In this document: piece after piece, positions 24,440 through 59,637 of the stretch
Layout: the number at the start of each line of letters is the position of its first letter
How positions within the stretch are numbered: position 1 is the stretch's first letter
From: an uncultured Rhodospirillaceae bacterium
GTDB lineage: Bacteria > Pseudomonadota > Alphaproteobacteria > UBA828
DNA length: 64,000 nt
Direction: 5' to 3'
Assembly (NCBI GenBank): GCA_963997635.1
Contig: CAXEND010000001.1
Span: 80,005-144,004 of the forward strand
Made by a program: the position numbers and the translations under genes
The notes under the pieces: model-generated
Told to the model about the DNA's origin: nothing
What the model saw: only the letters and a program-made list of their open reading frames with translations
The model's database searches: none

Positions 24440-24476
24440 AATTCCAAAAAAAATATAGGGCTTTTGGGGGGCTGCT

Positions 24477-43069: not shown

Positions 43070-45286
43070 GTGAGTTTTTTACGTCGTGTTTTCCGTAGGT
43101 TTGGTTGGGTGCATCTCATTGCACTTGGCTTATTAGCTGCACTCATTGTTCTTAGAGTAGCAGACCCAGCACCTCTACAACTTCTTAGATCAAAAATATT
43201 TGACTTTTATCAACAGGTTGAACCAAGAGAGCGAAGTAGACAGCCCGTAGCAATAGTAGATATTGATGAGGAAAGTTTAAGGGACGTTGGTCAGTGGCCT
43301 TGGCCAAGGACAACTGTTGCACGGCTTCTTAATAATCTACGCAAATATGGGGCTGCAGGAGTGGCTTTTGACGTAGTGTTTGCTGAGCCAGATCGTACAT
43401 CTCCAAATCTAGTAGCAAAAAATATACGAGGCCTTGGAAAAAAAGCACGCCAAGAGCTGGAACGACTTCCTAGCAATGATGAAACATTTGCGAGGATTAT
43501 CAAGCGGAGTCCAGCAGTACTTGGTCAGGCCACAATAAATAGAAAAATTGTAAAAACAGAGAGAAAATCTTTAAAAGCGACATTTGGCTATAAGCAACCA
43601 AAAGGGGTTCAAGCAAAGAATTTTATGCTTTCGTATCCTGGCATTACTAGAAATTTAGAAATACTTGAGAATGCTACTCCTGGTATTGGAGTATTTACTT
43701 TTAAGCCTGCAGTTGATGGAATTGTTAGGCAAGTACCACTAGTTGTAAGAGTTGATAATCGGGTATATCCGACACTTTCTTTAGAACTCCTAAGAGTAGC
43801 CACAAAACAAAAAACTTTTGTTGTCAAGGCTAATCAGGCAGGGCTTCAATCTGTTGTTGTTGCAGGTCTAGAAATTCCTACTGACCAGAATGGACAAGTA
43901 TGGATGAAATTCGCCAAGCACGATAGAAATTTATATATTCCAGCAAAAGATGTATTAAACAAGACTATTTCAAAGGAACGTATTGCGGGGCATCTTTTAT
44001 TTATTGGAACTTCTGCTGCTGGCCTTCTTGATATTAAAGCAACTCCAGTTGACCCAGCAATTCCTGGTGTAGAGGTTCATGCTCAGCTTCTTCAGAATAT
44101 AATGGATAAAATATATTTGATTCGACCAGGTTGGGCTATTGGTGCTGAGGTTATAGCTTTAGGATTATCCGGATTACTCTTAATTGGCCTTATACCATTT
44201 TTAGGCTCGCTATGGACTTTAATTATTGGATTGACATCTATAATTGGATTAGTAGCGATAACTTGGTGGGCATACCAATCTTCAGGAATGCTCCTAGATT
44301 TAATTTATTCAGCGTTTTCGGTTTTCTTAATATATGTAGTTTTGACATTTTTAAATTACATGAGAGAAGAAAGAGAAAGACGGCAGGTCAAAGGTCAATT
44401 TAGTCATTATTTATCTCCAGATTTAGTAAAGCAGTTAGCTGATGATCCAACTCGATTAACTCTTGGCGGAGAGATGAAAGAAATGACTCTATTATTTGCT
44501 GATATTAGAGGCTTTACAACCATTAGTGAGCAATTTGATGCTGAAGGCTTAACACGCTTTATAAATCGATATTTGACACCTATGACTGAGGTGATATTAC
44601 AACGAAGAGGGACTATAGATAAATATATGGGTGATTGTATAATGGCATTTTGGAACGCCCCCATAGATGATCCTGATCATGCAAAAAATGGGGTTAGATC
44701 AGCACTCGCTATGTTCGAAGAGAGTGATAAGATGAATGAAGTATTGAAAGCTGAAGCAAAAGACGAAGGGAGAAAATATATACCTCTACGCATTGGTGCA
44801 GGACTCAATACGGGTGTCTGCTGTGTAGGTAATATGGGATCTGATATGCGTTTTGATTATTCTGTTTTAGGTGATGACGTTAACCTAGCAGCAAGATTAG
44901 AGGGACAATCAAAGACTTACGGCGTTAATATAGTCATAGGTGAAAAGACCTATAATGCTGTTCAAGATTTTGCTTGTCTTGAGCTTGATCGTATCCAGGT
45001 GAAAGGGAAAACTGTACCTGTCGATATATTTTGTGTCTTAGGAGATGAAAAGAGAGCACAAAGTCCAGAATTTAGAGCTATCAAATCACTTAATGAAAAT
45101 ATGATAACTGCTTATCGAAAACAGCAGTGGAAATTAGCTAATCAAAGAATTGAAGAATTAAAGGAAATTGACAAAAATAAAGAGCTAGAAGTTTTATGTG
45201 AACTTTATGAGCAAAGAATATCTTACTACAAAGAAAATCCGCCCGGCGATAAATGGGACGGATCCTTTATTGCTACTACAAAGTAA
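43070..45286 (+). CDS. CHASE2 sensor-domain adenylate/guanylate cyclase (class III)
   Basis: N-terminal TM, ~300-aa periplasmic domain, three closely spaced TMs, then a class III cyclase domain (LLFADIRGFT ... GDCIMAFW ... GLNTGVCCVGNMGS). Confidence 0.8.
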   Translation: MSFLRRVFRRFGWVHLIALGLLAALIVLRVADPAPLQLLRSKIFDFYQQVEPRERSRQPVAIVDIDEESLRDVGQWPWPRTTVARLLNNLRKYGAAGVAFDVVFAEPDRTSPNLVAKNIRGLGKKARQELERLPSNDETFARIIKRSPAVLGQATINRKIVKTERKSLKATFGYKQPKGVQAKNFMLSYPGITRNLEILENATPGIGVFTFKPAVDGIVRQVPLVVRVDNRVYPTLSLELLRVATKQKTFVVKANQAGLQSVVVAGLEIPTDQNGQVWMKFAKHDRNLYIPAKDVLNKTISKERIAGHLLFIGTSAAGLLDIKATPVDPAIPGVEVHAQLLQNIMDKIYLIRPGWAIGAEVIALGLSGLLLIGLIPFLGSLWTLIIGLTSIIGLVAITWWAYQSSGMLLDLIYSAFSVFLIYVVLTFLNYMREERERRQVKGQFSHYLSPDLVKQLADDPTRLTLGGEMKEMTLLFADIRGFTTISEQFDAEGLTRFINRYLTPMTEVILQRRGTIDKYMGDCIMAFWNAPIDDPDHAKNGVRSALAMFEESDKMNEVLKAEAKDEGRKYIPLRIGAGLNTGVCCVGNMGSDMRFDYSVLGDDVNLAARLEGQSKTYGVNIVIGEKTYNAVQDFACLELDRIQVKGKTVPVDIFCVLGDEKRAQSPEFRAIKSLNENMITAYRKQQWKLANQRIEELKEIDKNKELEVLCELYEQRISYYKENPPGDKWDGSFIATTK

Positions 45287-45354: not shown

Positions 45355-47082
45355 TCACTCGTAGGGCCAAAGTCGAGCAAAGTTTTCATCTTCATTAACA
45401 GAGATTATTTTCTGATTCTGTGTAGATCCAAGAACATTAGAATTATTCTTTTTAGACTTCGCAACAATAGGTTTTATAACCTTGGTTAATCCGCTTTCAT
45501 TTTTTGTAGAGAATAATTGTGATTCTTCAGTCAATATCTGAGTTTTTTGAGAGATGTTAATTTCTTTTATTTTCTTACCTGTATTTTGATGTTTAGCTAA
45601 AGGTAGAGTAACCTTTTGTTTAACAGTAAGTTTTTCATTAGTTGTAGTTTCTTTTATATTAATAGAAGTTTTTGTTTTTGTAGGCTTATCTAAAAGAGAA
45701 ATTTTATTTTTTTTTGGCAAAGATGCTAAATTTGTAGAATTTTCAAGCGTTAAGCGTCCCATCGTAACCATTAGTCGATATACTGCGATGCGTGCATCGT
45801 GTTGAGCAGATACTAAGTTAATTCTGGCGTTAAATAACTCACTTTCTGCACCTAAAACATTTATGACGGTCTCTTTTCCTGCATCGCGTAATTTTTTTCT
45901 AGCTTCAAACACTTCAGCTGCAATGTTTACTGCATTCTGTAATAATGAGACTCTTTCTCTTGCTGTTTTTAGTCCTGACCAGGCTAGACGTGACTCTTCG
46001 GTGATTTTTCTTTTTACAAAATTACCAGAGTCAATTGTTGCCTTATGATTAAATGCAGCTTGTGCAGCTCCTGCACGTGTGGCAAACCCATTAAATATGG
46101 TCCATGAGGCGTTTACTTTTGCTTTATAGTCTCGTCTAGTACCTCGAGTTCCACTCAGGTCATCTTCATAATTCCATTCGCCTGTGACGTCGATAGTTGG
46201 GAAATAGTCTGCCTTTGCTATACGTTTTGCAGCGTTAGCGATTGATGTTTGTGAGCTAGCGCTGAGAATTGCTGGGTTTTCAGATAATGCTATTTCTATT
46301 ACTTCCTCCACTGTTTCAGGTACAAGGCCAAGAGGTGGGGTGGGCATGACTAGATTCTGGGGATATGGTGCGTGACCAAAAACTTGTTCGTAACGGCTTA
46401 TAGAATCTTCAAGTTGCCCTTCAAAAGAAACTCTACGTTCTTTAGCTACTTGAAGTGTAGATTTTGATTGTAATACATCAACTGCAATCCCAGCTCCTCT
46501 TCTTACTCGTTCATCTTCTAATTCTAGCTGAAGTCGAATAGTTTCTTCATTATTGCTAGATAATCTGAATAATTTAAAGTTACGCATTACTTCTAAATAG
46601 ATAGAAATTGCCTCAAAAAGAATTCCTTGTTTACTTGTTTCTGCCGAATGTTGTGCAGCAATCATTCCCGCTTCTGCCGTTTCGTTATTTGCATCATTTC
46701 TGAATCCATTAAAAATTACTTGCGTAACGGTAATTTTTGCATTTCGTGCTTGCCCAGTTGTAAAGGGACTAGTGTTAGGGTCTGTGGCTGATCGTCTTCC
46801 AGGGCTATCTATACGTTCATAGCCAAAGTTTCCTGTTGCTTGGATTGTGGGTAAATATTCTGCCAAGGCAGATTTAATACCTTCTTTTGCAGAAAAAACA
46901 CCTGCTTCTGCAGCTTTAATTTGTGGATGATTCTCGAGGATTCCTGATAACTCCTCCTTAAGTGTTTCGCTGGAAGATGAAGATACTGACACTAAAGTTG
47001 CACTTGCAGTTAGTATGCTGATCCATAAACTTTTATGAATTAAGTTCCTCATTAAGCTTGCTCCAATAGAACTACTCGACAA
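45355..47082 (-). CDS. TolC-family outer-membrane channel protein with ~130-aa low-complexity C-terminal extension
   Basis: Signal peptide; TolC-type duplicated helical/beta repeat architecture (ENHPQIKAAEAGV...YLPTIQATGNFGY); C-terminal K/T/N-rich tail; last gene of the cytochrome operon. Confidence 0.75.
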   Translation of the reverse strand: MSSSSIGASLMRNLIHKSLWISILTASATLVSVSSSSSETLKEELSGILENHPQIKAAEAGVFSAKEGIKSALAEYLPTIQATGNFGYERIDSPGRRSATDPNTSPFTTGQARNAKITVTQVIFNGFRNDANNETAEAGMIAAQHSAETSKQGILFEAISIYLEVMRNFKLFRLSSNNEETIRLQLELEDERVRRGAGIAVDVLQSKSTLQVAKERRVSFEGQLEDSISRYEQVFGHAPYPQNLVMPTPPLGLVPETVEEVIEIALSENPAILSASSQTSIANAAKRIAKADYFPTIDVTGEWNYEDDLSGTRGTRRDYKAKVNASWTIFNGFATRAGAAQAAFNHKATIDSGNFVKRKITEESRLAWSGLKTARERVSLLQNAVNIAAEVFEARKKLRDAGKETVINVLGAESELFNARINLVSAQHDARIAVYRLMVTMGRLTLENSTNLASLPKKNKISLLDKPTKTKTSINIKETTTNEKLTVKQKVTLPLAKHQNTGKKIKEINISQKTQILTEESQLFSTKNESGLTKVIKPIVAKSKKNNSNVLGSTQNQKIISVNEDENFARLWPYE

Positions 47083-47214
47083 CAGTTGCTGATTTTATAC
47101 CTTACGAATCTATTAATAAATGAAATTTAGCAGAAGAACTTTATTTCACAAGTCACTAGGGTTTACGGCGTAATTTTATAGACCTTTTAAACTTCTATAT
47201 TCGGTTAGATATTT

Positions 47215-48495
47215 TTATGCGTCTAGAGTTAAATTACCTTTTGGTATTGCAATACAAGCAAGGCATGAACCCTCCTCTGGTTCAGCTCCCGGTGCATTTA
47301 GATATTCAACTTCACCATCCTTGATTGCTGTTATACAAGTCCCACAATTTCCTGCTCTACAGCCAAAATCTATATCTACATCATTATCTTCAGCAAAATC
47401 AAGTATTGCTCCGGAATCTGGATCCCAATCTAAAGTTTTACCAGATTTGGCAAATGTAAGTTTTAACCCTGCACTAGATATTGAGGCTTCTGTCGCCTCT
47501 TTGTTGGCTTCTGTTTTTGTTTTTTTAACTGTAGCAGGACCAAAAGCTTCAAAGTGAATATGTTTATTCGGCACACCCCACGCTTCTAGGTCAGGCACAA
47601 CGGTATTCATCATCGGTGGTGGGCCACACATATAGAAGTCATAATTACTTGAGGGTAAGACTTTCTTAAAAAGTTCTACAGAAACTCTTTCTGCATAAGC
47701 ATAGTCTTCGCCTTCGGTATCTTCCTCACCTGGTTTGGAGAAGCATATACACATATGAATATTTTCATGCTCTTTTCCAATTTGTTTTAGATGGTTAGCC
47801 ATCACAGCTTCTTTGCTGTTTCTTACTCCATAAAAAAACCAAGTTTCACGTTTTGATCCAGATTCAACAATATCATTTAACATCGAGAGTACTGGTGTTA
47901 ATCCGATACCTCCACCAATGAGAACAACGGGGGTTTGTTTTGTTCTATCAAGAAAAAAATGACCGCCTGGAGCCTTTATATCAAGGATATCACCCTCATT
48001 AATTTTATCATGGAAAAAATTTGATGAAAGGCCTGGTGGAGCATCTGGTTCGTCACGTGGCGGGGGGACACGTTTGATTGAACAGCGGTAGTAGTCTGGG
48101 TGGTTTGGACTGTCTGAAAGCGAGTAACATCTAATAACTTGTTTTTTTTGTTCAGGTATATCAAGTCCAAATGTGAGATATTGACCAGGGTTAAATGGTG
48201 GTAATGGCTTTCCATCATGAGGTGAAAAATAAAATGAGCAAATATCACCACCTTCAGGGATTTTTTTCTTGACCTGGAATTTACGAAATCCGTTCCAAGA
48301 GAGTTCCTCAGACTCTTTCTCGAACTTACGGCGATCCATAATTCTTTCAATTTCTTCACGAAATATTTTATCTTGTAGTGCAGAGCTTTTTGCCAGTAAA
48401 GCTTCACGTCTAAAATTGCCAACACCTGTAAAGAAAAGTGTTGCGGCAAGAATAGCTAGAAAGACTAGAGCGACAATATGAATAGCAGTTTCCAT
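47215..48495 (-). CDS. Membrane-anchored oxidoreductase: FNR-like flavin/NAD(P)-binding domains plus C-terminal plant-type 2Fe-2S ferredoxin domain
   Basis: N-terminal TM helix; flavin motif RCYSLSD; NAD(P) motif GGGIGLTPVLSML; C-terminal CRAGNCGTC...C cluster motif. Confidence 0.75.
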   Translation of the reverse strand: METAIHIVALVFLAILAATLFFTGVGNFRREALLAKSSALQDKIFREEIERIMDRRKFEKESEELSWNGFRKFQVKKKIPEGGDICSFYFSPHDGKPLPPFNPGQYLTFGLDIPEQKKQVIRCYSLSDSPNHPDYYRCSIKRVPPPRDEPDAPPGLSSNFFHDKINEGDILDIKAPGGHFFLDRTKQTPVVLIGGGIGLTPVLSMLNDIVESGSKRETWFFYGVRNSKEAVMANHLKQIGKEHENIHMCICFSKPGEEDTEGEDYAYAERVSVELFKKVLPSSNYDFYMCGPPPMMNTVVPDLEAWGVPNKHIHFEAFGPATVKKTKTEANKEATEASISSAGLKLTFAKSGKTLDWDPDSGAILDFAEDNDVDIDFGCRAGNCGTCITAIKDGEVEYLNAPGAEPEEGSCLACIAIPKGNLTLDA

Positions 48496-48566
48496 ATTCC
48501 GCGGCCCTCCCTAGAGCCGATAATCTGTTATAAGTCTAAATTAATTAAAAATTTGAATTATTAGCG

Positions 48567-50108
48567 TTAAAATTTGCGGCGTATTTCAAAGCGTGCTCCG
48601 GAAATGTTTTGCTCCTCTGTTCTCCATCCGTGCATTGCATCAGCTCTAAATAACCAAGCTTCATTGATATTTTGCTGGTAGCGTAAACCCAAGGCATATT
48701 CATCTCCGCGAAGGCTCCTACCTACCTCATTTTCTCCTTCAATGACTTGGTTTGTAGCTGCTTCAATGACGATTTGACGATCTAAATTGAAGAGATAACT
48801 AACTCCTATAGCTCCACCAAATGCATTCTGTCCGGTATCATTGAGTTTAGGAAATCCTGTTAACCCATCTGTTTCAAAGTTAATACCAGTATTCTTTAAT
48901 AATCCATCTGCTCTAGCTGCTGATTGAGGCCTGTCAATGCCTACAAAAAAGTTACCATAAGGGACCAGTGTTGAGGGTAGACTTGTAATCAGGGAGTTCT
49001 CAACTAATAAAATTAAACCATCAGCCGTATCTTGCAAGTTATTGTCTCTATCTTGTCCAAAAGACCATATTGCTCTTATGCTATTAGAAAGCAATGCTCC
49101 GTATCTTTTTGTATATGCAATTGTAGCACTATTATATGACTCGTCGTCGAATCCACCTTCTCCATCTAATCTAGCAAAACCAGCTTCCCAGTATGCTTCC
49201 ATAGCTTCTACAAATGTAGCTACTCCAAAGATATTGACGTTATGATCAGCATTTGCATTTTGATCATCTTTGAAAGCTTGATTTGTAACTTTGTCAAAGC
49301 CATAGAAAAAAGATATATCCATATTGGTTATGTCCAATAATGGACTGTTGAGTGAGGGAATAGCAGTTGCTACACCTGTGAAAGCATCCTCAATCCATAT
49401 CCCATTTTGGAATAAGAGTGGCATAAGGCCTAATGAAAAGGGAACGTCAAGACTGGAGTATTCACCGCTAAAGCCAGCGTAAAGTGCACCTGCATCTCCT
49501 TCAAAAAATAGTGCATCTAAATTTCCATCGATTTGTGCATCACATTTCTTATTGGGGTCATTATTTGGTGCATCGTCACCAAAAAACTCGCAACGGCTAA
49601 ACTCACCTTGTCCATCAAGTGGCCTTAAAATAGCATGGATTCTCTCAGTTCCAGTGAATTTATAATCAATATCTAAATTAAGCCTAGTAGCAACCTGTCC
49701 TACCTCAACATTTCCATTGTCATTAAAAGCCAGTGCACTACGCCAATCTCCATAAACATATAGCTCTGTGAAAGTAGGGTTCAACTCTCCAAGAGCATCA
49801 CCTCCTTCAACTAATGGTCCACCAGAATAAAGAGGATTTCCAATCTCTAATAGAGGTCTTGTGACAGGATAGGCTGATTTGCCACCATAAATTTGAAGTT
49901 GGGCTTCAATATCATACTCTTCTTCTGGGTAACTTGGATCAGCTCTAAATACACCTGCGTCATGTTCGACAATTTTTGAGCGTGTATCTTTTTTGATCTC
50001 GGCACCATTGGCAAGATTTTGTTCTGCAGCAAATGAAAATGTTAAACTTGCGGCAATACAAAATGGCAATAAATGGTATCCAGGAAAGTTTTGAATGATT
50101 TTTTTCAC
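48567..50108 (-). CDS. Putative outer-membrane beta-barrel protein (porin-like)
   Basis: Signal peptide; C-terminal Phe (…ARFEIRRKF); alternating hydrophobic beta-strand pattern. Sits between multiheme cytochrome genes and an oxidoreductase, 7 nt downstream of the pentaheme gene. Confidence 0.5.
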   Translation of the reverse strand: MKKIIQNFPGYHLLPFCIAASLTFSFAAEQNLANGAEIKKDTRSKIVEHDAGVFRADPSYPEEEYDIEAQLQIYGGKSAYPVTRPLLEIGNPLYSGGPLVEGGDALGELNPTFTELYVYGDWRSALAFNDNGNVEVGQVATRLNLDIDYKFTGTERIHAILRPLDGQGEFSRCEFFGDDAPNNDPNKKCDAQIDGNLDALFFEGDAGALYAGFSGEYSSLDVPFSLGLMPLLFQNGIWIEDAFTGVATAIPSLNSPLLDITNMDISFFYGFDKVTNQAFKDDQNANADHNVNIFGVATFVEAMEAYWEAGFARLDGEGGFDDESYNSATIAYTKRYGALLSNSIRAIWSFGQDRDNNLQDTADGLILLVENSLITSLPSTLVPYGNFFVGIDRPQSAARADGLLKNTGINFETDGLTGFPKLNDTGQNAFGGAIGVSYLFNLDRQIVIEAATNQVIEGENEVGRSLRGDEYALGLRYQQNINEAWLFRADAMHGWRTEEQNISGARFEIRRKF

Positions 50109-50115
50109 GGCTCTT

Positions 50116-51957
50116 CTATCCTTTTACTTCAAATTCAACCGTGTAGGCGTCAATGTCTAGCATCCATTCGTTCATTGCACGCTCCATTTCTTTTGTGGCG
50201 CCAACAAACCTCATGAAATAGATTGGCTCAGCTCTACTTCTCATCCTGATAGCCAATTTATATGTGCCTGGTTGTTTTATGAGCTTTCCTGGAACTGAGT
50301 AATCAGCATCACGGCTAGATAATGGGGGAAGACTTCGCCCCTCCATTCGAACAAAGGGTGGGTGATTTATAACGGTTGTAGGCTGTGATGCTGGCCGTAG
50401 GAATGGAAGCTGGTCTACATCAAAGTTTACCGGCAAATACATCTCACGATCTGTCCCTTTTACGTTTGTAGTTAAGAATTTAGTCTGTAAATTAACTAAT
50501 TGGTCATCATATGGGACCTTTCCAGATAAAACGTCTGCACTATGAAGGTCTGCCATATCTCCTGCAGAGTCGGTATATCCAGATTCCCAAATATTTGTTC
50601 CATCAGGTCCTATCAGTGCAACATTAACCCAGAGTTCTGGCTGAGCACCAAGAGAGCCTGAAGGTAGATTATGTCCCGAATTAGTGTTTGAAATTGTGTA
50701 AGTGAAGTCGAGATCATGGCCAATTTGAGGGTTGTCATCAAAGAATGGCCCATCGATGTGGGAACCATTTTCCATGACTTGTCTCCTCAATTCGCGTTTT
50801 TCTTCTATAAGCCCAATGTTATAGTTTATAATTTCCCTAGCTTCTTCCCTGTCAAAACGATCTTCCCAGACTTCTGGAAATTCTATTTCTTCTATTTCTC
50901 CAGAATCAACTAATTCTTCATAATTATCTTCCCAATCTTCTTCTCCCCATGGAGCTCGATAGTTAAACTGAAGCCATTCTTCCATGGTCCAGTTTTCAGC
51001 GTCTGGGTTATGAGGGAAAATACCAGGGTGTGCAATAGGGTATCCTGGACCTGCAAAGGCATGACTATGTCTAATCCTGTCAGGATTTACAGCACGCCCA
51101 TCTACAACCGCAGCTGGACCAGTTTTGAAATGACCTGCAACCCCAGGTTTGTAACTCATATGGCAGTCTTGACATGACACACCTTGAGCATGGGCAGGCG
51201 AATCACGATACTGATCCCAAACTACTTCAAGCTTAATTCCTAAATTAACAGCAACCTGATGACATGAAACGCAAAATTCTGATTGATTGAGCTGTGTAAA
51301 AATTTTGCCTTCATTATGAATTTGATTTCCGCGCTCATCAGAATTAGTGGCAACTTTCCAAGTGCTAGCATTCTCGACCACTTCTTTAATCCCATCGCCT
51401 CCTAAGACGCCGTATACAGGTTCAAATATTTCCCCCATCACAATATTTCTGGAACCATTTGCTTTTCCATATGCTGTATTTACGCGGTGGCAGGTAATAC
51501 AAGTAATACCTTCCCGGCTAACTTGTTTACGTTCCCACATAGGGAGTTCCCTAGCTTCGCCCATTTGTGTGCTTACTGTTGCATGGCAGCGAACACAGAA
51601 TGTATTTATTGTGGGAGCAAGTGAGTTAATTGCATTTTCAAATTTATGAAACATTGGAGAAAGTGAGGCGTAGGCATGGTTTGATGAAGCCCATTCTCTG
51701 TAGATATCCTCATGGCATGATTTACATTTTGATGCACTGGGAAATAAATCTTCATTCAAAATATCTGTGTGCATTTTATCGGCATCAATTGTTTCATTGT
51801 CACTTGCTTCTAAATCTCCAGAAACTGATGAGAATGCAAATAGTCCAATGAGACATAAAAAGACTGAAATTTTAGTTAAGGTTTTTTTCATCATAATTGT
51901 AGTTTTCTCATGATCAGAGAAAATACTGTTTTTAAATAATATACTTAACTTAGTCAT
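50116..51957 (-). CDS. Secreted pentaheme cytochrome c with large heme-free acidic C-terminal domain
   Basis: Five CxxCH motifs (CKSCH, CVRCH, CITCH, CVSCH, CQDCH) within the first ~265 residues, then ~350 residues with none. Alternative start at 51894 (MMKKTL..., classic signal peptide) would remove the 8-nt overlap with the decaheme gene. Confidence 0.8.
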   Translation of the reverse strand: MTKLSILFKNSIFSDHEKTTIMMKKTLTKISVFLCLIGLFAFSSVSGDLEASDNETIDADKMHTDILNEDLFPSASKCKSCHEDIYREWASSNHAYASLSPMFHKFENAINSLAPTINTFCVRCHATVSTQMGEARELPMWERKQVSREGITCITCHRVNTAYGKANGSRNIVMGEIFEPVYGVLGGDGIKEVVENASTWKVATNSDERGNQIHNEGKIFTQLNQSEFCVSCHQVAVNLGIKLEVVWDQYRDSPAHAQGVSCQDCHMSYKPGVAGHFKTGPAAVVDGRAVNPDRIRHSHAFAGPGYPIAHPGIFPHNPDAENWTMEEWLQFNYRAPWGEEDWEDNYEELVDSGEIEEIEFPEVWEDRFDREEAREIINYNIGLIEEKRELRRQVMENGSHIDGPFFDDNPQIGHDLDFTYTISNTNSGHNLPSGSLGAQPELWVNVALIGPDGTNIWESGYTDSAGDMADLHSADVLSGKVPYDDQLVNLQTKFLTTNVKGTDREMYLPVNFDVDQLPFLRPASQPTTVINHPPFVRMEGRSLPPLSSRDADYSVPGKLIKQPGTYKLAIRMRSRAEPIYFMRFVGATKEMERAMNEWMLDIDAYTVEFEVKG

Positions 51958-53923
51958 TATTAGTTACTCTCAGATTAAATCCTGTTTCATTATGATAGAG
52001 GTGGCATAACTGACAATCTTGCCTTACTTGTCCTTCATTATGACACTGAGTGCATGTTTCTTTATCTATCGAATCAAAGTTACTCTCAAATATATGCGGG
52101 TTGTTATCACTAAATGAAGCACCATAGTTAGCTTGGACATTTAATTTGTGGCAAGTTTGGCAGCCCGCTTCTGGATCAGCCAAATTTATACCACTTGGAT
52201 TGAGTATGTTTAAATGGGCTCCATGTGAATAAAACGTATGTGGTCTACTCTTTGAATTATTAAAGTTCCACTGTACATGTAAAGGGTTTGTTTCAGTTTC
52301 TGAAACAGAATGACACTTCGTACAGGCTCCAAAACCTTCCTTAGGATTAAGTAATTCGTCCCTCATAAACTCCCCAGACTCTTCAACATCCTCATCATCA
52401 TCAAGCACACTTAGAGCACCAAAGTTAATCCAAGCACGGACTACCGGATCTCCATGTCCAATAGGTTTATATTTTAACTCAACACCTTCTGCGTACCAAC
52501 CCCCATAATTTGGGTCAGAAGGTGACTCATATTCTTCATTAGATGCCCAAGCACATGCCACCTCTCTAGTAAGTGTTGGGCTCAGACCAGAGAGCATCTT
52601 TTTTGCGCCTTCGGCTCCAACTACTTCGGCAATTGTTTCCTCAAGAACTTCAGAGCCGTCTTCTAATAGACCTACAATCAAAGTCTGCAGTGGCTCTGTG
52701 TATTCAGAAGAGTCATCAATTGGTGTTCTAAGCAGATATGAACTGATAGCTGCTGGTTCGTCAAAAGAAACTGGTTCATATTCTTCTTCATCACCTATTA
52801 AAATTTCTTCATCAAGCATGTCTAATTCTTCTGCTTCAATTGCTTCACGCACTGTTGCTATATTATCTTGTATTTCTTCCCAAGCTTCAAGTGTGGGGCC
52901 ACAAGTTTCAGATACAAAATCTAAGTCAATAAAATTATCATCAAATTCAGGAAGCCTAAGTAATACTAGTTCACGACGAGGAATTGCATCATTATGGCAA
53001 CTTGCACATGCAGTTTGATATCCGACCGGCTTTACAGATTGCACGGCATCACTTACTTCATGACATGAAGTGCAGTTTGTTGGGGCAATATCTTCTAGTC
53101 TTTGATCTTTAAAATGTTGAGTTATATGGCTTGAATGATCAAAGCGTATTGCCGTACGTTGATCATGTGGAAAATCATCCGCAAAGTTTGGATGATTATT
53201 TGCAAAAGAAGAAATTTCTCTTTCATGGCAAGTATTACATTTTGCATCAGAAATAGCAGTTATATCAAAATCTTCTCCTTTGTGTTCAGAATGGCATGCA
53301 ATACAACTAAAATTATTGCTATGGGTGTTGGTCTTATTTGCATTGGAAGAAATATTGTGGGCCAGAAATGGTTCACCTACAAATGTGTGGCAATTTAAAC
53401 AATTTTTTGAAATATTGTTCTCTTCGAATGCAGCAAGAAACCATTCTCCAGCATCCTTTGCATGGGGTTCGTGGCAGGCAACACAACCGCTAGAGGAGGT
53501 AAAATTTGCGTGGCCGTCTGTTAATGGGCCAGCAGATGAAATTACATTATGTCCAGATCCATCACTTCCAAGGGTTAACATCAGGGCAATAACAGATATT
53601 ACAATTGCAAATGCACTTATAGCCATTAAACCTCTTAGGCTTCTAATACTTCTGCGTGGGCGACACGGTGGCTGATGTTGAGAGCATTTACCATCTGATC
53701 CAGGGCCATTGTCACATGGGCCTCCAAATAGTGTAGATCGCCTACATTCAAAGCGATCACCAACTTGTGCTGGTTGGCATTCATAGATACCACCACATTT
53801 GCCACTATTATCAGGGCCAAATTCACAAGGCTTCCCCCATTCAGCTGCTCTCCCACAACGAAATTTACGATTGGGTCGTTCGTAGCGGCTGATGTCATGC
53901 CTGAATTTATTTGGATCCATCAT
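51950..53923 (-). CDS. Membrane-anchored decaheme cytochrome c with cytoplasmic duplicated 4-Cys N-terminal module
   Basis: Ten CxxCH motifs (CVACH, CLNCH, CIACH, CNTCH, CTSCH, CASCH, CTKCH, CQTCH, CTQCH, CQLCH). Single TM helix preceded by an Arg-rich stretch. Start taken as ATG 53923, forming an ATGA overlap with the upstream stop, rather than the ORF-track start at 54007. Confidence 0.8.
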   Translation of the reverse strand: MMDPNKFRHDISRYERPNRKFRCGRAAEWGKPCEFGPDNSGKCGGIYECQPAQVGDRFECRRSTLFGGPCDNGPGSDGKCSQHQPPCRPRRSIRSLRGLMAISAFAIVISVIALMLTLGSDGSGHNVISSAGPLTDGHANFTSSSGCVACHEPHAKDAGEWFLAAFEENNISKNCLNCHTFVGEPFLAHNISSNANKTNTHSNNFSCIACHSEHKGEDFDITAISDAKCNTCHEREISSFANNHPNFADDFPHDQRTAIRFDHSSHITQHFKDQRLEDIAPTNCTSCHEVSDAVQSVKPVGYQTACASCHNDAIPRRELVLLRLPEFDDNFIDLDFVSETCGPTLEAWEEIQDNIATVREAIEAEELDMLDEEILIGDEEEYEPVSFDEPAAISSYLLRTPIDDSSEYTEPLQTLIVGLLEDGSEVLEETIAEVVGAEGAKKMLSGLSPTLTREVACAWASNEEYESPSDPNYGGWYAEGVELKYKPIGHGDPVVRAWINFGALSVLDDDEDVEESGEFMRDELLNPKEGFGACTKCHSVSETETNPLHVQWNFNNSKSRPHTFYSHGAHLNILNPSGINLADPEAGCQTCHKLNVQANYGASFSDNNPHIFESNFDSIDKETCTQCHNEGQVRQDCQLCHLYHNETGFNLRVTNND

Positions 53924-54735
53924 AATGCATACACATTTACGACTATTACGTGCCAAAAAATCAGTGCTAATACTGCAGCTGCTAATGGCACATGAGCTAG
54001 AAGCCAATATTTCATCATCGATTGACAGGCAAAATGAAAATCAATTTTCGATTTATATTTAGCAAGGTCGTTGAGATTATTTAGATATTCACGCTCAGCT
54101 TCGCTTAAATAACGTGACACTGTCTGGTAACTTTGGTTTATCCAATGTTCTGCTGCTGCACCGCCAAGAGTATGGCTAAGGAAAAACCTTGGACGCTGAA
54201 AATACCAGCGTAGTGATTCCATATAATGCCGAGCAAGAGTGTCACTACCTGTATTTTCTGTACAGGCAATTGTTATAGATTCTGATTTTTCTCTTAACTC
54301 TGAAAGTTCTGCTGGTATACGTTCATAAATAATTTCTAATTCAGTCTGAACAAGGCGTTTAGGGTATATTTTTTGTATAATGTATCCAAAAATTCCACTG
54401 ATGGTAACTAGATAAAATACTATCGCAAGTGCTTGTTCATATGCACCAGTTGGCCATACATTTCCTGTGTGAATGAAAAACAGACCCAGAGCTGCTATAC
54501 CGCCAACCACGTGAACTGCAAGCCAATAAGCAGATCTTCCAAAGGGAACCATAGATAGTTTTTTTCGTGCATTAAAAGTAGCTAGCCCTAGCATTAAACC
54601 AAAAAGCACATATCCTGTTATAAATTCTGGCTGACCAAGATTAATATTTGAAATTGAAGAGTATGTAGCAAAGGCAGCAATAAAAGCTGCACTAAATACC
54701 CACAGAATAATATAACGTGTGGTTACAGCATTCAT
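53920..54735 (-). CDS. Integral membrane protein, putative di-heme cytochrome b (NarI/DsrM-like)
   Basis: About 5 TM helices. Two TM segments each carry a His pair 13-14 residues apart (HVVGGIAALGLFFIH; HVPLAAAVLALIFWH), as in bis-heme b proteins. Start and stop are translationally coupled to both flanking genes. Confidence 0.5.
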   Translation of the reverse strand: MNAVTTRYIILWVFSAAFIAAFATYSSISNINLGQPEFITGYVLFGLMLGLATFNARKKLSMVPFGRSAYWLAVHVVGGIAALGLFFIHTGNVWPTGAYEQALAIVFYLVTISGIFGYIIQKIYPKRLVQTELEIIYERIPAELSELREKSESITIACTENTGSDTLARHYMESLRWYFQRPRFFLSHTLGGAAAEHWINQSYQTVSRYLSEAEREYLNNLNDLAKYKSKIDFHFACQSMMKYWLLAHVPLAAAVLALIFWHVIVVNVYAL

Positions 54736-56405
54736 ACCTTAACCCCTGTAAAGGTCTCCTCACCCTGAAAGTTAACACGCCTAAGTGCATCATGCGGGCA
54801 TGCTCTTACACATGCTGGTCCACCTGGGTTGTTTGAACACAGGTCACATTTTGTAGCCTTGCTGATAGGCTTTTGTGTGCCTGGATCCCTGAGTGGTTGA
54901 CCCTTTAAATCTCGAATTTCAACTAATCTTATATTATTGTATGGACAAGAATTTGCGCATGTCCCACAGCCTATACATGTATCATCATTAATTACTACTG
55001 CCCCAGAATCTAGAGAACGATGGATTGCCCCTGTCGGGCATCCAATCATGCAAACTGGATCTTCGCAATGCATGCATGCGTTTGTAACCATCCAATTATC
55101 AAATGTTCTACCATGCCTTATAAACCTTGGATTTCCACCATGTGTAGAGGCACAGGCTCTAACACAATCGTCGCAGCGAACACAACGCTCAAGGTCAATA
55201 AGCATTGCCATAGTACCATTAATAAAGCGTTGATCCAGTGCCCATTCCATTGGGGCATCTGCTTCCATTGATTTTGATAAAGATGGTGTTAACAGTGGTT
55301 TAGGGTTATCCTTAATTTTTGGGAAAACATATTTTTCTATAATAGGTGCGGGAACTCTGAGTATATCTACGTAACCAAGAGCAGAAAGAGAAGTTTGAAG
55401 TGATTGTTCCCCAGTAGTTTTATTGGCCCATAATTCATCAAAGCCAAAATAATCTCCTGCTCCTAGATACGTTAGTGTGCGTTGTCCCGTCCCCATTTTT
55501 ATTGATACTCTTGCAAAACCAGCTCGAACCATTAGTAGACCATCCGGATAATTACCTTGTTTAGCTATAATTGGTTCTTCAGCAGATTTTCCTTGTTCAC
55601 GCATACGTTTATATGAAACGTTCCAATCAAAACTACCAAAAGTTTCAAAAAGTGTTGAGTTAGCTACTTCCTCCAATTCTTCTGGTTCTAGATCAGAAAA
55701 TAAAGGTGTTTCCTTCAAGTGAACTTTTAATGCATTTTCTCTGTAGCGTTCATCAATTTTACGGCGCCATTCAGTGTCATATTTTCTGATCTCTCTCAGA
55801 CCTTGCCACCTAATCTCTAGAAGTTCAGCGTCATTTTCAGCAAAAATACTGGCAGTTCTTGGCACACGTCCTAGAGCTGCTAATTCTCCAAAAAGTGCAC
55901 CAGATTCAAGTTCTGCTGTTTGATGGCTATTTAGAACAGCGGGAATATCTTGAATAAAAACATGCGATGATGTCAGATCCCCAGAGTCTGGATCACGGAG
56001 TGCTTGTGATCCATAACGTGAAGTATCTCGTAATTCTGGTTCTGATGAATTTGTCCAGAGCTGGCTTAGTGCCTCAATAAAATTACGTTTTTTAGTAGAC
56101 TCTCTGCCTATCATTGAGCGAGGTAGACTTGGGTTTATAACCACCCTCACTTTCCCGCTAATTACAAGGAACGCTGAGTTCCCATAGTCTCCTTCTCGAA
56201 CTACTATATCTCCTGATTTGTATTTCATAATTCTGGTATCGTTTTCTAAGATACCAGAAAGTGGGGTATGCTTTGGAAAACTTTCAGAGTCTATCGCTCT
56301 AAATTCTGGTAAATTTAGAAGTTTTTCAACTTCTGTTTCAGTCATTTCGGGGCCAAAAGGTGCTTCCCATCGCTGCGGGCGTGCCATCATTGCAACTGTA
56401 GACAA
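54732..56405 (-). CDS. Cytoplasmic protein with two cyclic-nucleotide-binding domains fused to a four-cluster [4Fe-4S] ferredoxin module (DmsB/NrfC-like)
   Basis: Two cNMP-binding-like segments (…GDIVVREGDYGNSAFLVISGKVRV…; …GLLMVRAGFARVS…GAGDYFGFDEL…). Four cluster motifs (CVRCDDCVRAC; CMHCEDPVCMIGCP; CIGCGTCANSCP; CDLCSNNPGGPACVRACP). No signal or TAT peptide. Confidence 0.8.
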   Translation of the reverse strand: MSTVAMMARPQRWEAPFGPEMTETEVEKLLNLPEFRAIDSESFPKHTPLSGILENDTRIMKYKSGDIVVREGDYGNSAFLVISGKVRVVINPSLPRSMIGRESTKKRNFIEALSQLWTNSSEPELRDTSRYGSQALRDPDSGDLTSSHVFIQDIPAVLNSHQTAELESGALFGELAALGRVPRTASIFAENDAELLEIRWQGLREIRKYDTEWRRKIDERYRENALKVHLKETPLFSDLEPEELEEVANSTLFETFGSFDWNVSYKRMREQGKSAEEPIIAKQGNYPDGLLMVRAGFARVSIKMGTGQRTLTYLGAGDYFGFDELWANKTTGEQSLQTSLSALGYVDILRVPAPIIEKYVFPKIKDNPKPLLTPSLSKSMEADAPMEWALDQRFINGTMAMLIDLERCVRCDDCVRACASTHGGNPRFIRHGRTFDNWMVTNACMHCEDPVCMIGCPTGAIHRSLDSGAVVINDDTCIGCGTCANSCPYNNIRLVEIRDLKGQPLRDPGTQKPISKATKCDLCSNNPGGPACVRACPHDALRRVNFQGEETFTGVKV

Positions 56406-56582
56406 CTTATTTCCCCCTTGACTAAAACTTCATAAAGCCAAATTCATTTAACTGGTATTAACCACTAATAAAACACAAATCTTCTAGCCTGAATAAATAG
56501 AGTAAAAACTAATGAATATCTTTTCCTAGCATTAGGTCCAATAAACCTTAGACTTTAGCTATTTAGTCCATTAAGCATTTAA

Positions 56583-57518
56583 TTATTTAAACTCGGTAGG
56601 AAGTAAGCCTCCGACAGTTCCAGATAGATCCTGATCTTTTATAGCTGCAGTTAATGCTACTGCATTTTCTCTGTTTGGGTTTTCTATTAATGTTTTCGCT
56701 GCATCAACTCCAGAAAGAGCTGCTCGAGCGGCTTCGGCACGGGCTTGTTGGAATTCAATAAATTTAGGAGAACCAGACCTACTTATTGCTATTGTAGCCG
56801 ATACAAGCTTAGCAGCTTGTCCTACTACAAATGCACGGCTCATTTCGGCAGGTGTCATTTCGGCATTTTTTGTCATATCTGGCGGATAAAAACGATGTCT
56901 TATACTACCTTGGCTATATTTGACGTATTCCCAGTCAGGTTTAGCGGGATGACCATTTTCTAGCATTATAGCTAATTTTTCTGGATCTATGTTTGCATTT
57001 GCAAGTCCATGACACTCATTACAGTTTTCTGCTATTCCATAGCGGTCAAAAGACCATCGCATTCCAGCAGCCGTTGCTGCAACAATTCTTTCATCCTTCG
57101 GCTCTGCTCTATTATTATGAATTGTAAACCAATCAGACGATGCCCCGTGACAGCTTTCGCAGGACGGGCCAGCTTTTGGTTTTGCTTTTGCGGCGGATGC
57201 TGCGTCTTTGGCTACCAAGGTATAGTGGCATTGAACACATGTTTCATTCTTTTTCATGCTTTTATTACCAGTAGCCTTTGCGAGTGCTTTTGCTAACTTA
57301 CTTTTATGGACTTTTTTAAAGGATTTTGCGTGTTTGGTTTCTTCCCAAATCTGAAACTCAGCTTTGTGGCATTCAGCACACTTTTTGGGTCCTTGGTTAA
57401 ATGGCTCTGCCATAGATTGTCCAGATAAAATTACAGCTCCACCAAGTATTAAAAACATACCAGCTATTGCTGCGACTATTATTTTATTTTGCAATGAGAA
57501 CATCTTTGCCTTCCCCAA
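56583..57518 (-). CDS. Membrane-anchored tetraheme cytochrome c
   Basis: N-terminal signal-anchor; four CxxCH motifs (CAECH, CVQCH, CESCH, CNECH); Ala/Lys-rich C-terminal region; first gene of the operon. Confidence 0.75.
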   Translation of the reverse strand: MGKAKMFSLQNKIIVAAIAGMFLILGGAVILSGQSMAEPFNQGPKKCAECHKAEFQIWEETKHAKSFKKVHKSKLAKALAKATGNKSMKKNETCVQCHYTLVAKDAASAAKAKPKAGPSCESCHGASSDWFTIHNNRAEPKDERIVAATAAGMRWSFDRYGIAENCNECHGLANANIDPEKLAIMLENGHPAKPDWEYVKYSQGSIRHRFYPPDMTKNAEMTPAEMSRAFVVGQAAKLVSATIAISRSGSPKFIEFQQARAEAARAALSGVDAAKTLIENPNRENAVALTAAIKDQDLSGTVGGLLPTEFK

Positions 57519-57749: not shown

Positions 57750-59417
57750 CTAAATTGGGAATTCGATTTTACCTAATCTAGCTGAAAGTTTCATATTTTC
57801 TCTATAATCAATTGGTATTGCAATAACAGCTGGGCCATCTTGCTTATATGCAGTTTTTAGAGCTGGTAAAAGTTCATCAGAACTTTTAAGGGTTTTTCCC
57901 CACGCACCGAAAGATTTGGCCCACAACTCAATATTTGGATTCGTGAACTTTAGATCACTATGTCGCCCGTTGAAAGAATTCTGTTGCTTCCATTTGATTA
58001 ACCCATATTCGCCATCCATCCAAACTAAGGCAACAACATTTAATTTATATCTTACCGCAGTTTCAATATCCTGAGCATTCATATGAAACCCTGCATCTCC
58101 ATTTATAGATAAAACTTTTTTATCGGGGCAAGCAATTTTAGCACCTATAGATCCTGGGAATGCAAAACCCATCGTACAGAAACCATTTGAAATTAGACAA
58201 GTATTAGGTTTGTCGCACTGGTAGTAGCGGGAAATCCACATTTTATGTGCTCCAACATCTGACAATAAGATATCATCAGGACCCAAAAATTCCCGAACAT
58301 CATATAAAACCTTTTGTGGCTTCATAGGAAAGGCCTTAGAACGTTTTTCTTTTTGAAGGTCAGAACTTATTGTTTTTCTTAAGGCGGCCCTTTTCTTAAT
58401 ATCAAATAGCGGCAGAGGAATATTTCTTTTCTCTGTTCGTTTAGTTAATTCTTCATTCATTTGCCAAAGGGCGTCTGCAATATCTCCTGCAACATCAACA
58501 GCTGGTTGGTAATGATCATCAACTTCTGCAGGCCAAAAATCTATATGGATAATTTTCTTTTTTGATCCAGCATTCCAGAAAGCTGGAGCGTATTCCACCA
58601 AATCATAACCAGCAGATATAATTACATCTGCTTCACGCATAGCTGCAATTATATGGTCTTTGCCTTGAAGTCCAACTGTGAAAAGAGAATGTTGATCAGA
58701 GCGTGGAATTGCACCTTTCCCCATAAATGTATTTACGACCCCTATACCCGTAAGTTCGGCAAAACGACGAAGTTGTTCAGAAGCTCTTTTTCTTACTGCT
58801 CCATTGCCAGCCAAAATCAAAGGATTTTTTGCTCTCATTATTATGTCTACAGCCTTTGCCACAGCTTTGTGATCTGCACCGGGTCTGCGGGTTACATAGG
58901 GCTTAATTGGTTTTTCAATGGTCTTGTGCTCAGCGATATCTTCCGGTAGTTCAATTAGAACAGCACCAGGTTTTTCTGTTTCTGCTACCTTAAAGGCTTT
59001 TCGAACTATTTCTGGAATATTGTCAGGGTGATAGACTGATTGTGCCCATTTAGTGATTGGCTTAAACATGGCTATAGAGTCCATATTTTGATGGCTTTCT
59101 TTGTGTAAACGTTCAGTATCCGCTTGGCCAATCAAACAGACAAGAGGTGCTCTATCCATATTTGCATCAGCAACACCAGTTACCAGATTTGTGGCTCCTG
59201 GTCCTAAGGTTCCTAAACAAACTCCAGCCTTTCCAGTAAGACGTCCATACACATCCGCCATGAATGCGGCAGCCTGTTCGTGTCTGCAGAGAACAAACTT
59301 AATTTTTGAATTCATCAAAGAGATCATTACGTCTGCATTCTCTTCTCCGGGAATACCAAAGATATGGGTCACCCCTTCATTTTCTAGACATTTGACAAAA
59401 AGGTCTGAAGCTTTCAT
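57750..59417 (-). CDS. Thiamine-pyrophosphate enzyme, acetolactate synthase-like (catabolic AlsS-type)
   Basis: TPP-enzyme N-terminal block (VTHIFGIPGEE…LGPGATNLVTGVADA) and C-terminal TPP-binding region. Start placed at ATG 59417, preceded by GGGAGA, rather than the ORF-track start 59483. Confidence 0.75.
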   Translation of the reverse strand: MKASDLFVKCLENEGVTHIFGIPGEENADVMISLMNSKIKFVLCRHEQAAAFMADVYGRLTGKAGVCLGTLGPGATNLVTGVADANMDRAPLVCLIGQADTERLHKESHQNMDSIAMFKPITKWAQSVYHPDNIPEIVRKAFKVAETEKPGAVLIELPEDIAEHKTIEKPIKPYVTRRPGADHKAVAKAVDIIMRAKNPLILAGNGAVRKRASEQLRRFAELTGIGVVNTFMGKGAIPRSDQHSLFTVGLQGKDHIIAAMREADVIISAGYDLVEYAPAFWNAGSKKKIIHIDFWPAEVDDHYQPAVDVAGDIADALWQMNEELTKRTEKRNIPLPLFDIKKRAALRKTISSDLQKEKRSKAFPMKPQKVLYDVREFLGPDDILLSDVGAHKMWISRYYQCDKPNTCLISNGFCTMGFAFPGSIGAKIACPDKKVLSINGDAGFHMNAQDIETAVRYKLNVVALVWMDGEYGLIKWKQQNSFNGRHSDLKFTNPNIELWAKSFGAWGKTLKSSDELLPALKTAYKQDGPAVIAIPIDYRENMKLSARLGKIEFPI

Positions 59418-59637
59418 TGCATATCTCCCTAATAAAAATGTTATATTAGAGTATCGCTGACATTTTTCGATCGTCAACAGCAAGTATTAAAAAGTATCAA
59501 CATTTAGGGTAGTAATTAAATTTATTTTGATGTTTTCTTATGTAAATACGGATTTATTTTGTATAAATTTGTATTTTATCTCTTCATTAGTTTATTGTTC
59601 AATCTTGATGATTAAACTCACTTATTAGGTTGTAATT

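Follow-up and report, generated by a model that had tools for sequence, protein, structure and literature searches.

The window analysed here is the whole stretch of 64,000 nucleotides taken from a contig of an uncultured Rhodospirillaceae bacterium, and between its positions 45355 and 57518 it carries eight consecutive open reading frames (ORFs), all of them on the minus strand and arranged head-to-tail (Table 1). The seven genes at 47215-57518 are the ptd cluster, in the order ptdD-E-F-G-A-B-C, an identification based on the presence of all seven components described for the "ptdABCDEFG operon", which was defined by Elbon et al. in a 2024 preprint (bioRxiv 10.1101/2023.11.21.568154). The hosts in that work were uncultured marine Alphaproteobacteria of the order UBA11136, sampled in the oxygen-deficient zone of the Eastern Tropical North Pacific, where ptdA and ptdB were found to be highly transcribed, and the parts of the operon were given as a pentaheme cytochrome (PtdA), the porin PtdB, an FAD/NAD(P) oxidoreductase (PtdC), a tetraheme cytochrome (PtdD), a protein with cyclic-nucleotide-binding (cNMP) and 4Fe-4S domains (PtdE), a "ferric reductase-like" membrane protein (PtdF) and a decaheme cytochrome (PtdG) (bioRxiv 10.1101/2023.11.21.568154). 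In the window, PtdA, PtdD and PtdG have five, four and ten heme motifs, counts that are kept in homologs, ptdB lies directly after ptdA, and PtdC, PtdE and PtdF were recognised by Pfam domains and homolog families. The host is again a marine alphaproteobacterial metagenome-assembled genome (MAG), although the gene order departs from the ptdABCDEFG of the preprint. A sequence-only reading of this DNA had taken the gene set for an undescribed combination; this claim falls, because the same set had already been named, an outcome which that reading had itself listed as counting against it. Literature searches returned no second paper on the ptd name or gene set, and the system was previously known only as a gene list. 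Other parts of the sequence-only reading were borne out: direct counting gives its 19 CxxCH motifs (4 in the first product, 10 in the fourth, 5 in the fifth and 0 in the other five), and most of its domain calls are backed by Pfam and NCBIfam (c554-like, cNMP_binding/Fer4, FAD_binding_6/NAD_binding_1/Fer2 and TolC).

Table 1. Coordinates in the window of the ptd genes, the adjoining TolC-family gene and selected protein domains, in order of transcription.
Feature	Gene	Coordinates	Strand	Basis or remarks
ptdD, c554-like cytochrome c with four hemes and an N-terminal anchor or signal peptide	g1	56583..57518	-	4 CxxCH, Pfam
ptdE, cytoplasmic Fe-S protein, two cNMP-binding domains and four-cluster [4Fe-4S] ferredoxin domain	g2	54732..56405	-	
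PtdE, first cNMP domain, phosphate-binding cassette FGELAALGRVPRTA	g2	55851..55892	-	read directly
PtdE, four-cluster ferredoxin domain	g2	54771..55208	-	
ptdF, inner-membrane protein of 271 aa with 5 transmembrane segments, four invariant His	g3	53920..54735	-	
ptdG, single-pass membrane-anchored decaheme cytochrome c, heme domain periplasmic	g4	51950..53923	-	
PtdG, cytoplasmic N-terminal Cys-rich domain	g4	53639..53923	-	8 conserved Cys, two repeats
ptdA, secreted pentaheme cytochrome c, ~300-aa non-heme C-terminal domain	g5	50116..51957	-	
ptdB, outer-membrane beta-barrel, ~18 strands, C-terminus RRKF	g6	48567..50108	-	
ptdC, membrane-anchored NAD(P)H-flavin-[2Fe-2S] oxidoreductase	g7	47215..48495	-	
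TolC-family outer-membrane channel	g8	45355-47082	-	TIGR01844, 238.7 bits

The arrangement of the genes as first reported, with ATGA start/stop overlaps at 54732-54735 (ptdE/ptdF) and 53920-53923 (ptdF/ptdG) and a gap of 7 nt between ptdA and ptdB, was read again from the sequence without change. The translational coupling that had been claimed for all eight genes holds for ptdE-ptdF-ptdG and for ptdA-ptdB, but not across the loose junctions, which have spacers of 177 nt (ptdD-ptdE), 71 nt (ptdB-ptdC) and 132 nt (ptdC-TolC). The junction between ptdG and ptdA counts among the tight ones if the upstream start of ptdA is taken: the reported 8-nt overlap at 51950-51957 requires the ATG at 51957, which puts 21 extra residues ahead of the signal peptide, and is lost with the alternative start at 51894 (MMKK), from which an ordinary signal peptide stands at the N-terminus. 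In the related locus L003 the gene callers took the upstream ptdA start. The start that gene callers give to ptdE is 56390, which yields a protein of 552 aa. Scans of the cluster for consensus promoters and terminators gave counts not above those of shuffled sequence and were uninformative, and base composition offered no clear sign of recent transfer, the GC content being 0.39-0.41 within the cluster and 0.34-0.41 in the rest of the window. The mechanical ORF list also contains frames of 83-157 aa that sit within the ptd genes or run antisense to them, such as 47976-48449 (-) and several plus-strand ORFs inside 51347-55271, which we took as spurious because they lie inside conserved coding regions.

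Relatives of PtdE number more than 5000 at E<=1e-10, the 120 matches listed being 56-100% identical to the PtdE of the window, and they turned up in at least 574 species when one genome per species was scanned. The window protein itself is 100% identical to that of a Tara Oceans MAG labelled "Rhodospirillaceae bacterium" and is present on 17 metagenome contigs. The host phyla include Alpha-, Beta- and Gammaproteobacteria, Verrucomicrobiota, Planctomycetota, Nitrospinota, Elusimicrobia and Acidobacteriota, and most hosts are MAGs recovered from marine, lake, groundwater or soil samples, together with the cultured Kordiimonadales strain IMCC3096 (CP018227, locus L016) and, likewise in culture, Minwuia thermotolerans, in contrast with the exclusively saline habitats of the preprint. 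Marine Alphaproteobacteria are the commonest hosts among the loci retrieved, so that the cluster can no longer be regarded as unexpected in an alphaproteobacterial context, as the sequence-only reading had it.

For the analysis of synteny the proteins of the window were mapped by tblastn onto 82 retrieved loci, 36 of which were well flanked, that is, extended for at least 9 kb on either side of ptdE. PtdE, PtdF, PtdG and PtdC were each present in all 36 well-flanked loci, PtdD in 35, PtdA in 32 and PtdB in 31, as against 3 for the TolC-family channel and 1 for a neighbouring CHASE2 cyclase. The commonest gene order among the 82 loci was DEFGABC (31 loci), followed by ABCDEFG (7), DEFGcba (5) and cbaDEFG (4), and although the modules were rearranged between phyla, the DEFG block and the AB pair stayed unbroken. 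A shorter version came from an Omnitrophota MAG with only E-F-G-C, the flanks of which hold neither a cytochrome nor a porin. All-against-all clustering of 570 flanking ORFs disclosed no additional family in more than 8 of the 82 loci, and those that did recur are generic (TPP enzyme, ABC ATPase, CoA-transferase, MBL fold and glutamate dehydrogenase, each in at most 8 loci), so that the possibility of a neighbouring gene that would reveal the substrate of ptd was rejected. As no further flanking family recurs more widely than this, the conserved unit is one of seven genes, with a core of ptdE, ptdF, ptdG and ptdC and an optional outer-membrane pair, ptdA and ptdB. The co-localisation of the seven genes across phyla upholds the earlier view of a single conserved redox module that spans several compartments, with a flavoprotein and Fe-S protein in the cytoplasm and further parts in the membrane, the periplasm and the outer membrane. 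With respect to the preprint, the division into a core and an optional pair, the exclusion of TolC and the wider range of habitats are new.

A closer view of the individual proteins starts at the cytoplasmic side, where PtdC looks like a membrane-tethered NAD(P)H-FAD-2Fe-2S module and is the predicted entry point for electrons. It matches FAD_binding_6, NAD_binding_1 and Fer2 in Pfam, has an N-terminal transmembrane (TM) segment at residues 4-22 and conserves the motifs RxYS and GGxGxTP as well as C379, C384, C387 and C411 (C-x4-C-x2-C...C). Among solved proteins, the nearest to it are the flavohemoglobin reductase domain (1cqx, 3ozu; 7e-57), NqrF and phthalate dioxygenase reductase. PtdE, which shows no signal peptide, Tat motif or TM segment, matches cNMP_binding (2.6e-23, 82 bits against a cut-off of 27.5) and several Fer4 families in Pfam. 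Four 4Fe-4S clusters are predicted in this protein, instead of the two of the preprint, because 16 invariant Cys fall into four cluster motifs (C408/411/414/418, C444/447/452/456, C477/480/483/487 and C520/523/532/536). PtdE shares the features of the four-cluster [4Fe-4S] ferredoxin family of the HycB/HydN/DmsB type, and its closest solved proteins, HycB3 (6.8e-21) and HycB (1e-14), are electron-wire subunits; its matches to the four-cluster ferredoxin models of NCBIfam are partial and all under the full-length cut-offs.

The first of the two cNMP domains of PtdE contains FGELAALGRVPRTA, a canonical cassette for phosphate binding. Its Glu and Arg are invariant in 12 diverse homologs, as is the pattern FGELAALGRxPRTA as a whole; the second domain is without the cassette Arg. 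A pattern search found that a cassette of the FGE...R..R type is kept in 73 of 78 loci. To judge from its sequence, such an intact cassette hints at cAMP or cGMP as what turns electron flow on and off, and the domain probably gates electron transfer. A switch of this kind would be sensible, because the proposed pathway spends reducing power without conserving energy. Neither the four clusters of PtdE nor its conserved cNMP cassette formed part of the preprint's description, and the same is true of the PtdE-PtdF fusions and of the 8-Cys domain of PtdG, both presented below.

PtdF has no family match in Pfam or NCBIfam. Its residues H75, H89, H248 and H262 are invariant in 40 homologs and at least 90% conserved in 76, and they form two pairs, H75/H89 on helix 3 and H248/H262 on the last helix, each with its members 14 residues apart, so that each helix offers one His near each membrane face. 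This layout is the one that is classic for a stack of two b hemes, which PtdF probably binds. The AF2 model, with a predicted local distance difference test score (pLDDT) of 88, is all-helical and has five TM helices, whereas hydropathy gives four helices above threshold; by the positive-inside rule and the distribution of charge, a helical domain at about residues 130-240 is predicted to be cytoplasmic. The family is large: a set of 1.84 billion proteins contains 1967 representative clusters of it at E<=1e-3, almost every one of about 270 aa. Among its members are two natural fusions, P0089 (828 aa) and P0433 (757 aa, truncated), in which PtdE is joined by a proper linker to the N-terminus of PtdF. 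These fusions support a PtdE-PtdF complex as well as an N-in topology of PtdF, and since they are independent of each other and the two genes overlap at an ATGA in the window, a contact between both proteins is likely. P0433 has a degenerate cNMP cassette (LFGEAAAIGRVPHNIT), and therefore gating may be lost in some lineages.

The affiliation of PtdF is a separate matter. The presence of two His pairs on two TM helices, 14 residues apart, agrees with the spacing of 13-14 residues of NADPH oxidases (NOX) and ferric reductases. Nevertheless, the label of ferric reductase-like given in the preprint could not be confirmed: none of 40 PtdF homologs matched the Pfam family Ferric_reduct even at E<=5, a comparison of the PtdF profile with E. 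coli MsrQ by hhalign returned a probability of 0.3%, and sequence membership of the ferric reductase/MsrQ family is not supported. The alternative label of NarI-like, proposed by the sequence-only reading, fared no better, with an hhalign probability below 1% against NarI and no support from Pfam or from the fold search, a Foldseek run with the PtdF model in which nothing was significant. Matches to DUF4405 appeared in 17 of the 40 homologs, over helices 2-3, all of them sub-threshold (best E 0.035). By its sequence, PtdF thus makes up a family of its own, and both this orphan status and the geometry of its His residues are additions to the preprint, as is the OprD/MOMP-like nature of PtdB described further on.

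On the periplasmic side, the 10 CxxCH motifs of PtdG are matched by exactly ten further conserved His, for which reason an all-bis-His wire is predicted. The protein has a single TM segment (residues 98-116), and the search with its whole sequence found no relative in the PDB. Ahead of the TM helix, and followed by a stretch RPRRSIRSLRG, stands the Cys-rich domain of about 95 aa, where C23, C33, C43, C49, C60, C70, C80 and C87 are at least 90% conserved in 66 homologs and form two repeats of approximately C-x9-C-x9-10-C-x5-6-C that are kept across phyla. This domain has no Pfam or PDB match, is absent from the preprint's account (bioRxiv 10.1101/2023.11.21.568154) and is a candidate for a metal site or for a docking site of PtdE. 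Shorter variants with fewer Cys occur in three loci (L033, L036 and L038). PtdD, for its part, matches Cytochrome_C554 in Pfam (4.8e-16) and cytochrome c554 in the PDB (1bvb, 1.2e-11), and its four hemes can all be bis-His, since four further His (H63, H134, H190 and H208) are at least 90% conserved in 74 homologs. By these counts, PtdG and PtdD look like cytochromes that serve electron transfer only. The sequence-only reading was right to call it a tetraheme protein, but the membrane anchor that it assigned is not established, as an SMA|EP site comes after the hydrophobic N-terminus; PtdD may be a soluble periplasmic protein and is likely a periplasmic electron carrier.

At the outer membrane, PtdA shows at least six extra conserved His and a conserved M246 beside its 5 CxxCH motifs, and therefore all five hemes can be six-coordinate. 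It contains no CxxCK. A catalytic heme in PtdA was considered and set aside, as the count of conserved His leaves no open site, an argument that is not decisive. The only solved relative is the pentaheme c552 of Thermochromatium (PDB 5ze8), to which PtdA is weakly related (5e-7), and searches of Pfam and of PDB sequences yielded no family for its C-terminal domain of about 300 aa. In most loci that carry both genes, ptdA is directly upstream of ptdB. PtdB, of 513 aa, has no Pfam match and models as an 18-strand outer-membrane porin of the OprD/MOMP type, a result that bears out the earlier prediction of an outer-membrane beta-barrel but not the likeness to Mtr/Pio-type barrels that had been added to it, MtrB being a poor structural match. 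If the model is right, PtdB would be a porin of the substrate-channel type and not an MtrB-type sheath, which makes a strict Mtr-like wiring doubtful. PtdA and PtdB also fall into two classes, one with about 50-79% (A) and 41-65% (B) identity to the window proteins and another with 31-40% (A) and 22-29% (B). The divergent class, found in L031, L044, L052, L056, L057 and others from Nitrospinota, Planctomycetota and Verrucomicrobiota, is usually located upstream of DEFG or inverted relative to it, and the two classes may serve different acceptors.

We propose, with a confidence only slightly above even, that ptdDEFGABC is a self-contained and widespread module that moves electrons outward from cytoplasmic NAD(P)H. 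In the chain that we infer, PtdC, held at the membrane by its one-helix anchor with the catalytic domains in the cytoplasm, would oxidise NAD(P)H via FAD and 2Fe-2S; PtdE, also in the cytoplasm, would relay the electrons through its four 4Fe-4S clusters, with the cyclic-nucleotide domain as the probable gate; and PtdF would carry them across the inner membrane by means of two b hemes held between two helices, one heme per membrane face. PtdG would then accept them onto its periplasmic ten-heme wire, its 8-Cys domain probably helping to dock PtdE, and the four hemes of PtdD would pass them to the five of PtdA, which would act at the outer membrane in concert with the porin PtdB, the last step being the weakest of the proposal. 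NAD(P)H donates electrons at low potential, and an inside-negative membrane potential favours the movement of electrons to the outside; the outward direction is proposed on these two grounds and because the cluster lacks an ion-coupling subunit able to push electrons the other way.

Several points weigh against this proposal. In some loci both PtdA and PtdB are missing, and in one of them PtdD as well, so the step at the outer membrane must be optional. By geometry, an 18-strand PtdB is unlikely to sheath a cytochrome of 590 aa, and hence the last step may not be extracellular. PtdF could conceivably contain a quinone site, and domains of the cyclic-nucleotide type are able to bind other ligands. 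Finally, the authors of the sole paper on ptd, who suggest a porin-cytochrome complex, state that its function "remains completely unknown" (bioRxiv 10.1101/2023.11.21.568154).

The most serious competitor, unlikely as we judge it, keeps the same inner-membrane chain and ends it in the periplasm: the system would be an NAD(P)H-fed reductase of a small soluble substrate, for which an Fe(III) chelate, some nitrogen oxide or a different small oxidant might qualify, with PtdB as the import channel, PtdA as the terminal reductase and nothing leaving the cell. No catalytic-heme signature can be seen in PtdA, however, no conserved gene for a transporter or for substrate-related functions accompanies the cluster, and the only solved relative of PtdA is a weak one, the preprint likewise giving this protein no known function (bioRxiv 10.1101/2023.11.21.568154). 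A respiratory scheme of the Mtr/Pcc type, in which quinol, oxidised by PtdF or by the anchor of PtdG, would feed extracellular electron transfer and leave PtdC and PtdE only regulation or a side input, has the attraction that multiheme cytochromes beside an outer-membrane barrel resemble the layout of porin-cytochrome systems, a parallel also drawn in the preprint (bioRxiv 10.1101/2023.11.21.568154), and that PtdA and PtdG give weak Pfam matches to MtrC/MtrF domains and NapC/NirT. We hold it to be improbable, since there is no MtrB/PioB match, the 33.9 bits obtained with the DmsE/MtrA model fall short of its cut-off of 192, and the hosts are mostly environmental MAGs and not known metal respirers; moreover, the presence of PtdC and PtdE in every well-flanked locus and the two fusions of PtdE to PtdF mark these proteins as core and not accessory.

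The cofactor chain itself is neutral as to direction, and multiheme-porin pairs such as MtoAB and PioAB run oxidatively, so that a donor outside the cell or in the periplasm, for instance Fe(II), might in principle feed electrons through PtdA, PtdG, PtdF, PtdE and PtdC to reduce NAD(P)+. Such an inward route seems very improbable: it would be strongly uphill for common donors and run against the membrane potential, no more than 5 helices are present in PtdF, and neither a proton- or ion-coupling subunit nor an NrfD, Nuo or Rnf-like partner was found. A chance adjacency of genes from unrelated pathways, for which the three junctions with 71-177-nt spacers could be adduced, is refuted by the synteny of the seven genes in most of the 82 loci across phyla, and we give it practically no credit except for TolC.

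In this regard, the TolC-family gene lies directly downstream of ptdC beyond the spacer already given, and its product ends in a long low-complexity tail after the OEP repeats. It adjoins ptd in 6 of the 82 loci, including the 3 that are well flanked, all of them from Alphaproteobacteria; with this synteny and the 132-nt spacer, the place of an eighth component that the sequence-only reading had given to the channel was rejected. The window also contains an AcrB-family RND pump of 1041 aa at 24477-27602 (+), preceded by an ORF of 420 aa that may be its membrane-fusion protein, the pair spanning 23177-27602 (+), and it is more plausible that TolC serves pumps such as this one than the ptd system. 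Convergent with TolC, a CHASE2-sensor adenylate/guanylate cyclase is encoded at 43070-45286 (+), a neighbour also found in L003, L008 and L011. Its single occurrence among the well-flanked loci led to its rejection as a ptd component, although it could supply the nucleotide sensed by PtdE. Just upstream of ptdD, a thiamine pyrophosphate (TPP)-dependent enzyme, acetolactate-synthase-like and with three TPP_enzyme domains, occupies 57750-59483 (-); homologs of it flank ptd in 8 of the 82 loci, among them the distant L077 and L081.

Altogether, the sequence-only reading stands in outline, and what it said of novelty, TolC, NarI and the type of barrel does not. The problem posed by ptd is now narrowed to a four-gene core, an optional outer-membrane pair, a likely allosteric switch and two uncharacterised cofactor sites. 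Were the proposed chain right, many bacteria not counted as "electroactive" would own an NAD(P)H-driven route for electron export, with a bearing on iron and manganese cycling, on the production of reactive oxygen and on redox balancing in oxygen-poor water. A bolder version, which we put forward as rather doubtful, sees in ptd a bacterial, multi-subunit, cyclic-nucleotide-gated counterpart of NADPH oxidase or ferric reductase that uses up cytoplasmic NAD(P)H to bring electrons over the inner membrane and, by way of PtdA and PtdB, to the cell surface in mostly aerobic oligotrophs. If that were true, PtdF and the 8-Cys domain of PtdG would represent new cofactor-binding families, and the system could underlie reductive iron acquisition or regulated extracellular superoxide production, a process that two papers describe as widespread in marine bacteria (PMC7035516, PMC6414704).

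When set beside known systems, ptd shares with Mtr, Mto and Pio the multiheme c-type cytochromes next to an outer-membrane barrel, with the gene of the cytochrome directly before that of the barrel. However, PtdA has 5 hemes and a large non-heme domain in place of a slim decaheme, and entry at the inner membrane would depend in ptd on an NAD(P)H flavoprotein and an Fe-S chain instead of CymA, ImcH or CbcL. As the sequence-only reading had stated, ptd is neither of the Mtr/Pio nor of the Hmc/Tmc kind: no protein fits MtrB_PioB, PtdA and PtdD reach 33.9 and 18.4 bits with the DmsE/MtrA model (TIGR03508) against a cut-off of 192.2, PtdG matches nothing in NCBIfam, TIGR03508 included, and the Hmc models of NCBIfam remain far under their cut-offs for the ptd proteins. 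The 18-strand geometry also argues against insertion of a cytochrome through the lumen of PtdB.

With NarH-NarI, FdnH-FdnI and Hmc/Tmc the cluster has in common a four-cluster ferredoxin-like subunit beside a small His-rich membrane subunit and, in the case of Hmc/Tmc, multiheme cytochromes on the periplasmic side; it differs from these complexes in having no molybdoenzyme, NrfD-type subunit or CCG-domain (HdrD-like) protein. Small membrane proteins of the DUF4405, PepSY-like and FezC groups, which have a central set of four His, have been shown to bind heme b and were proposed to transfer electrons across the membrane (PMC11334425). PtdF departs from these proteins in its 5 helices and its cytoplasmic helical insert of about 110 residues, and ptd is not accompanied by ApbE flavinylation genes. 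In comparison with NOX and ferric reductases of the Fre-MsrQ type, ptd places a 2Fe-2S and four 4Fe-4S clusters between flavin and hemes and would pass its electrons to c-type cytochromes instead of O2 or MsrP. By analogy, then, ptd may be said to work like a cross between a two-component NOX-like system such as Fre-MsrQ, made up of a flavoprotein and a di-heme membrane protein, and a porin-cytochrome module.

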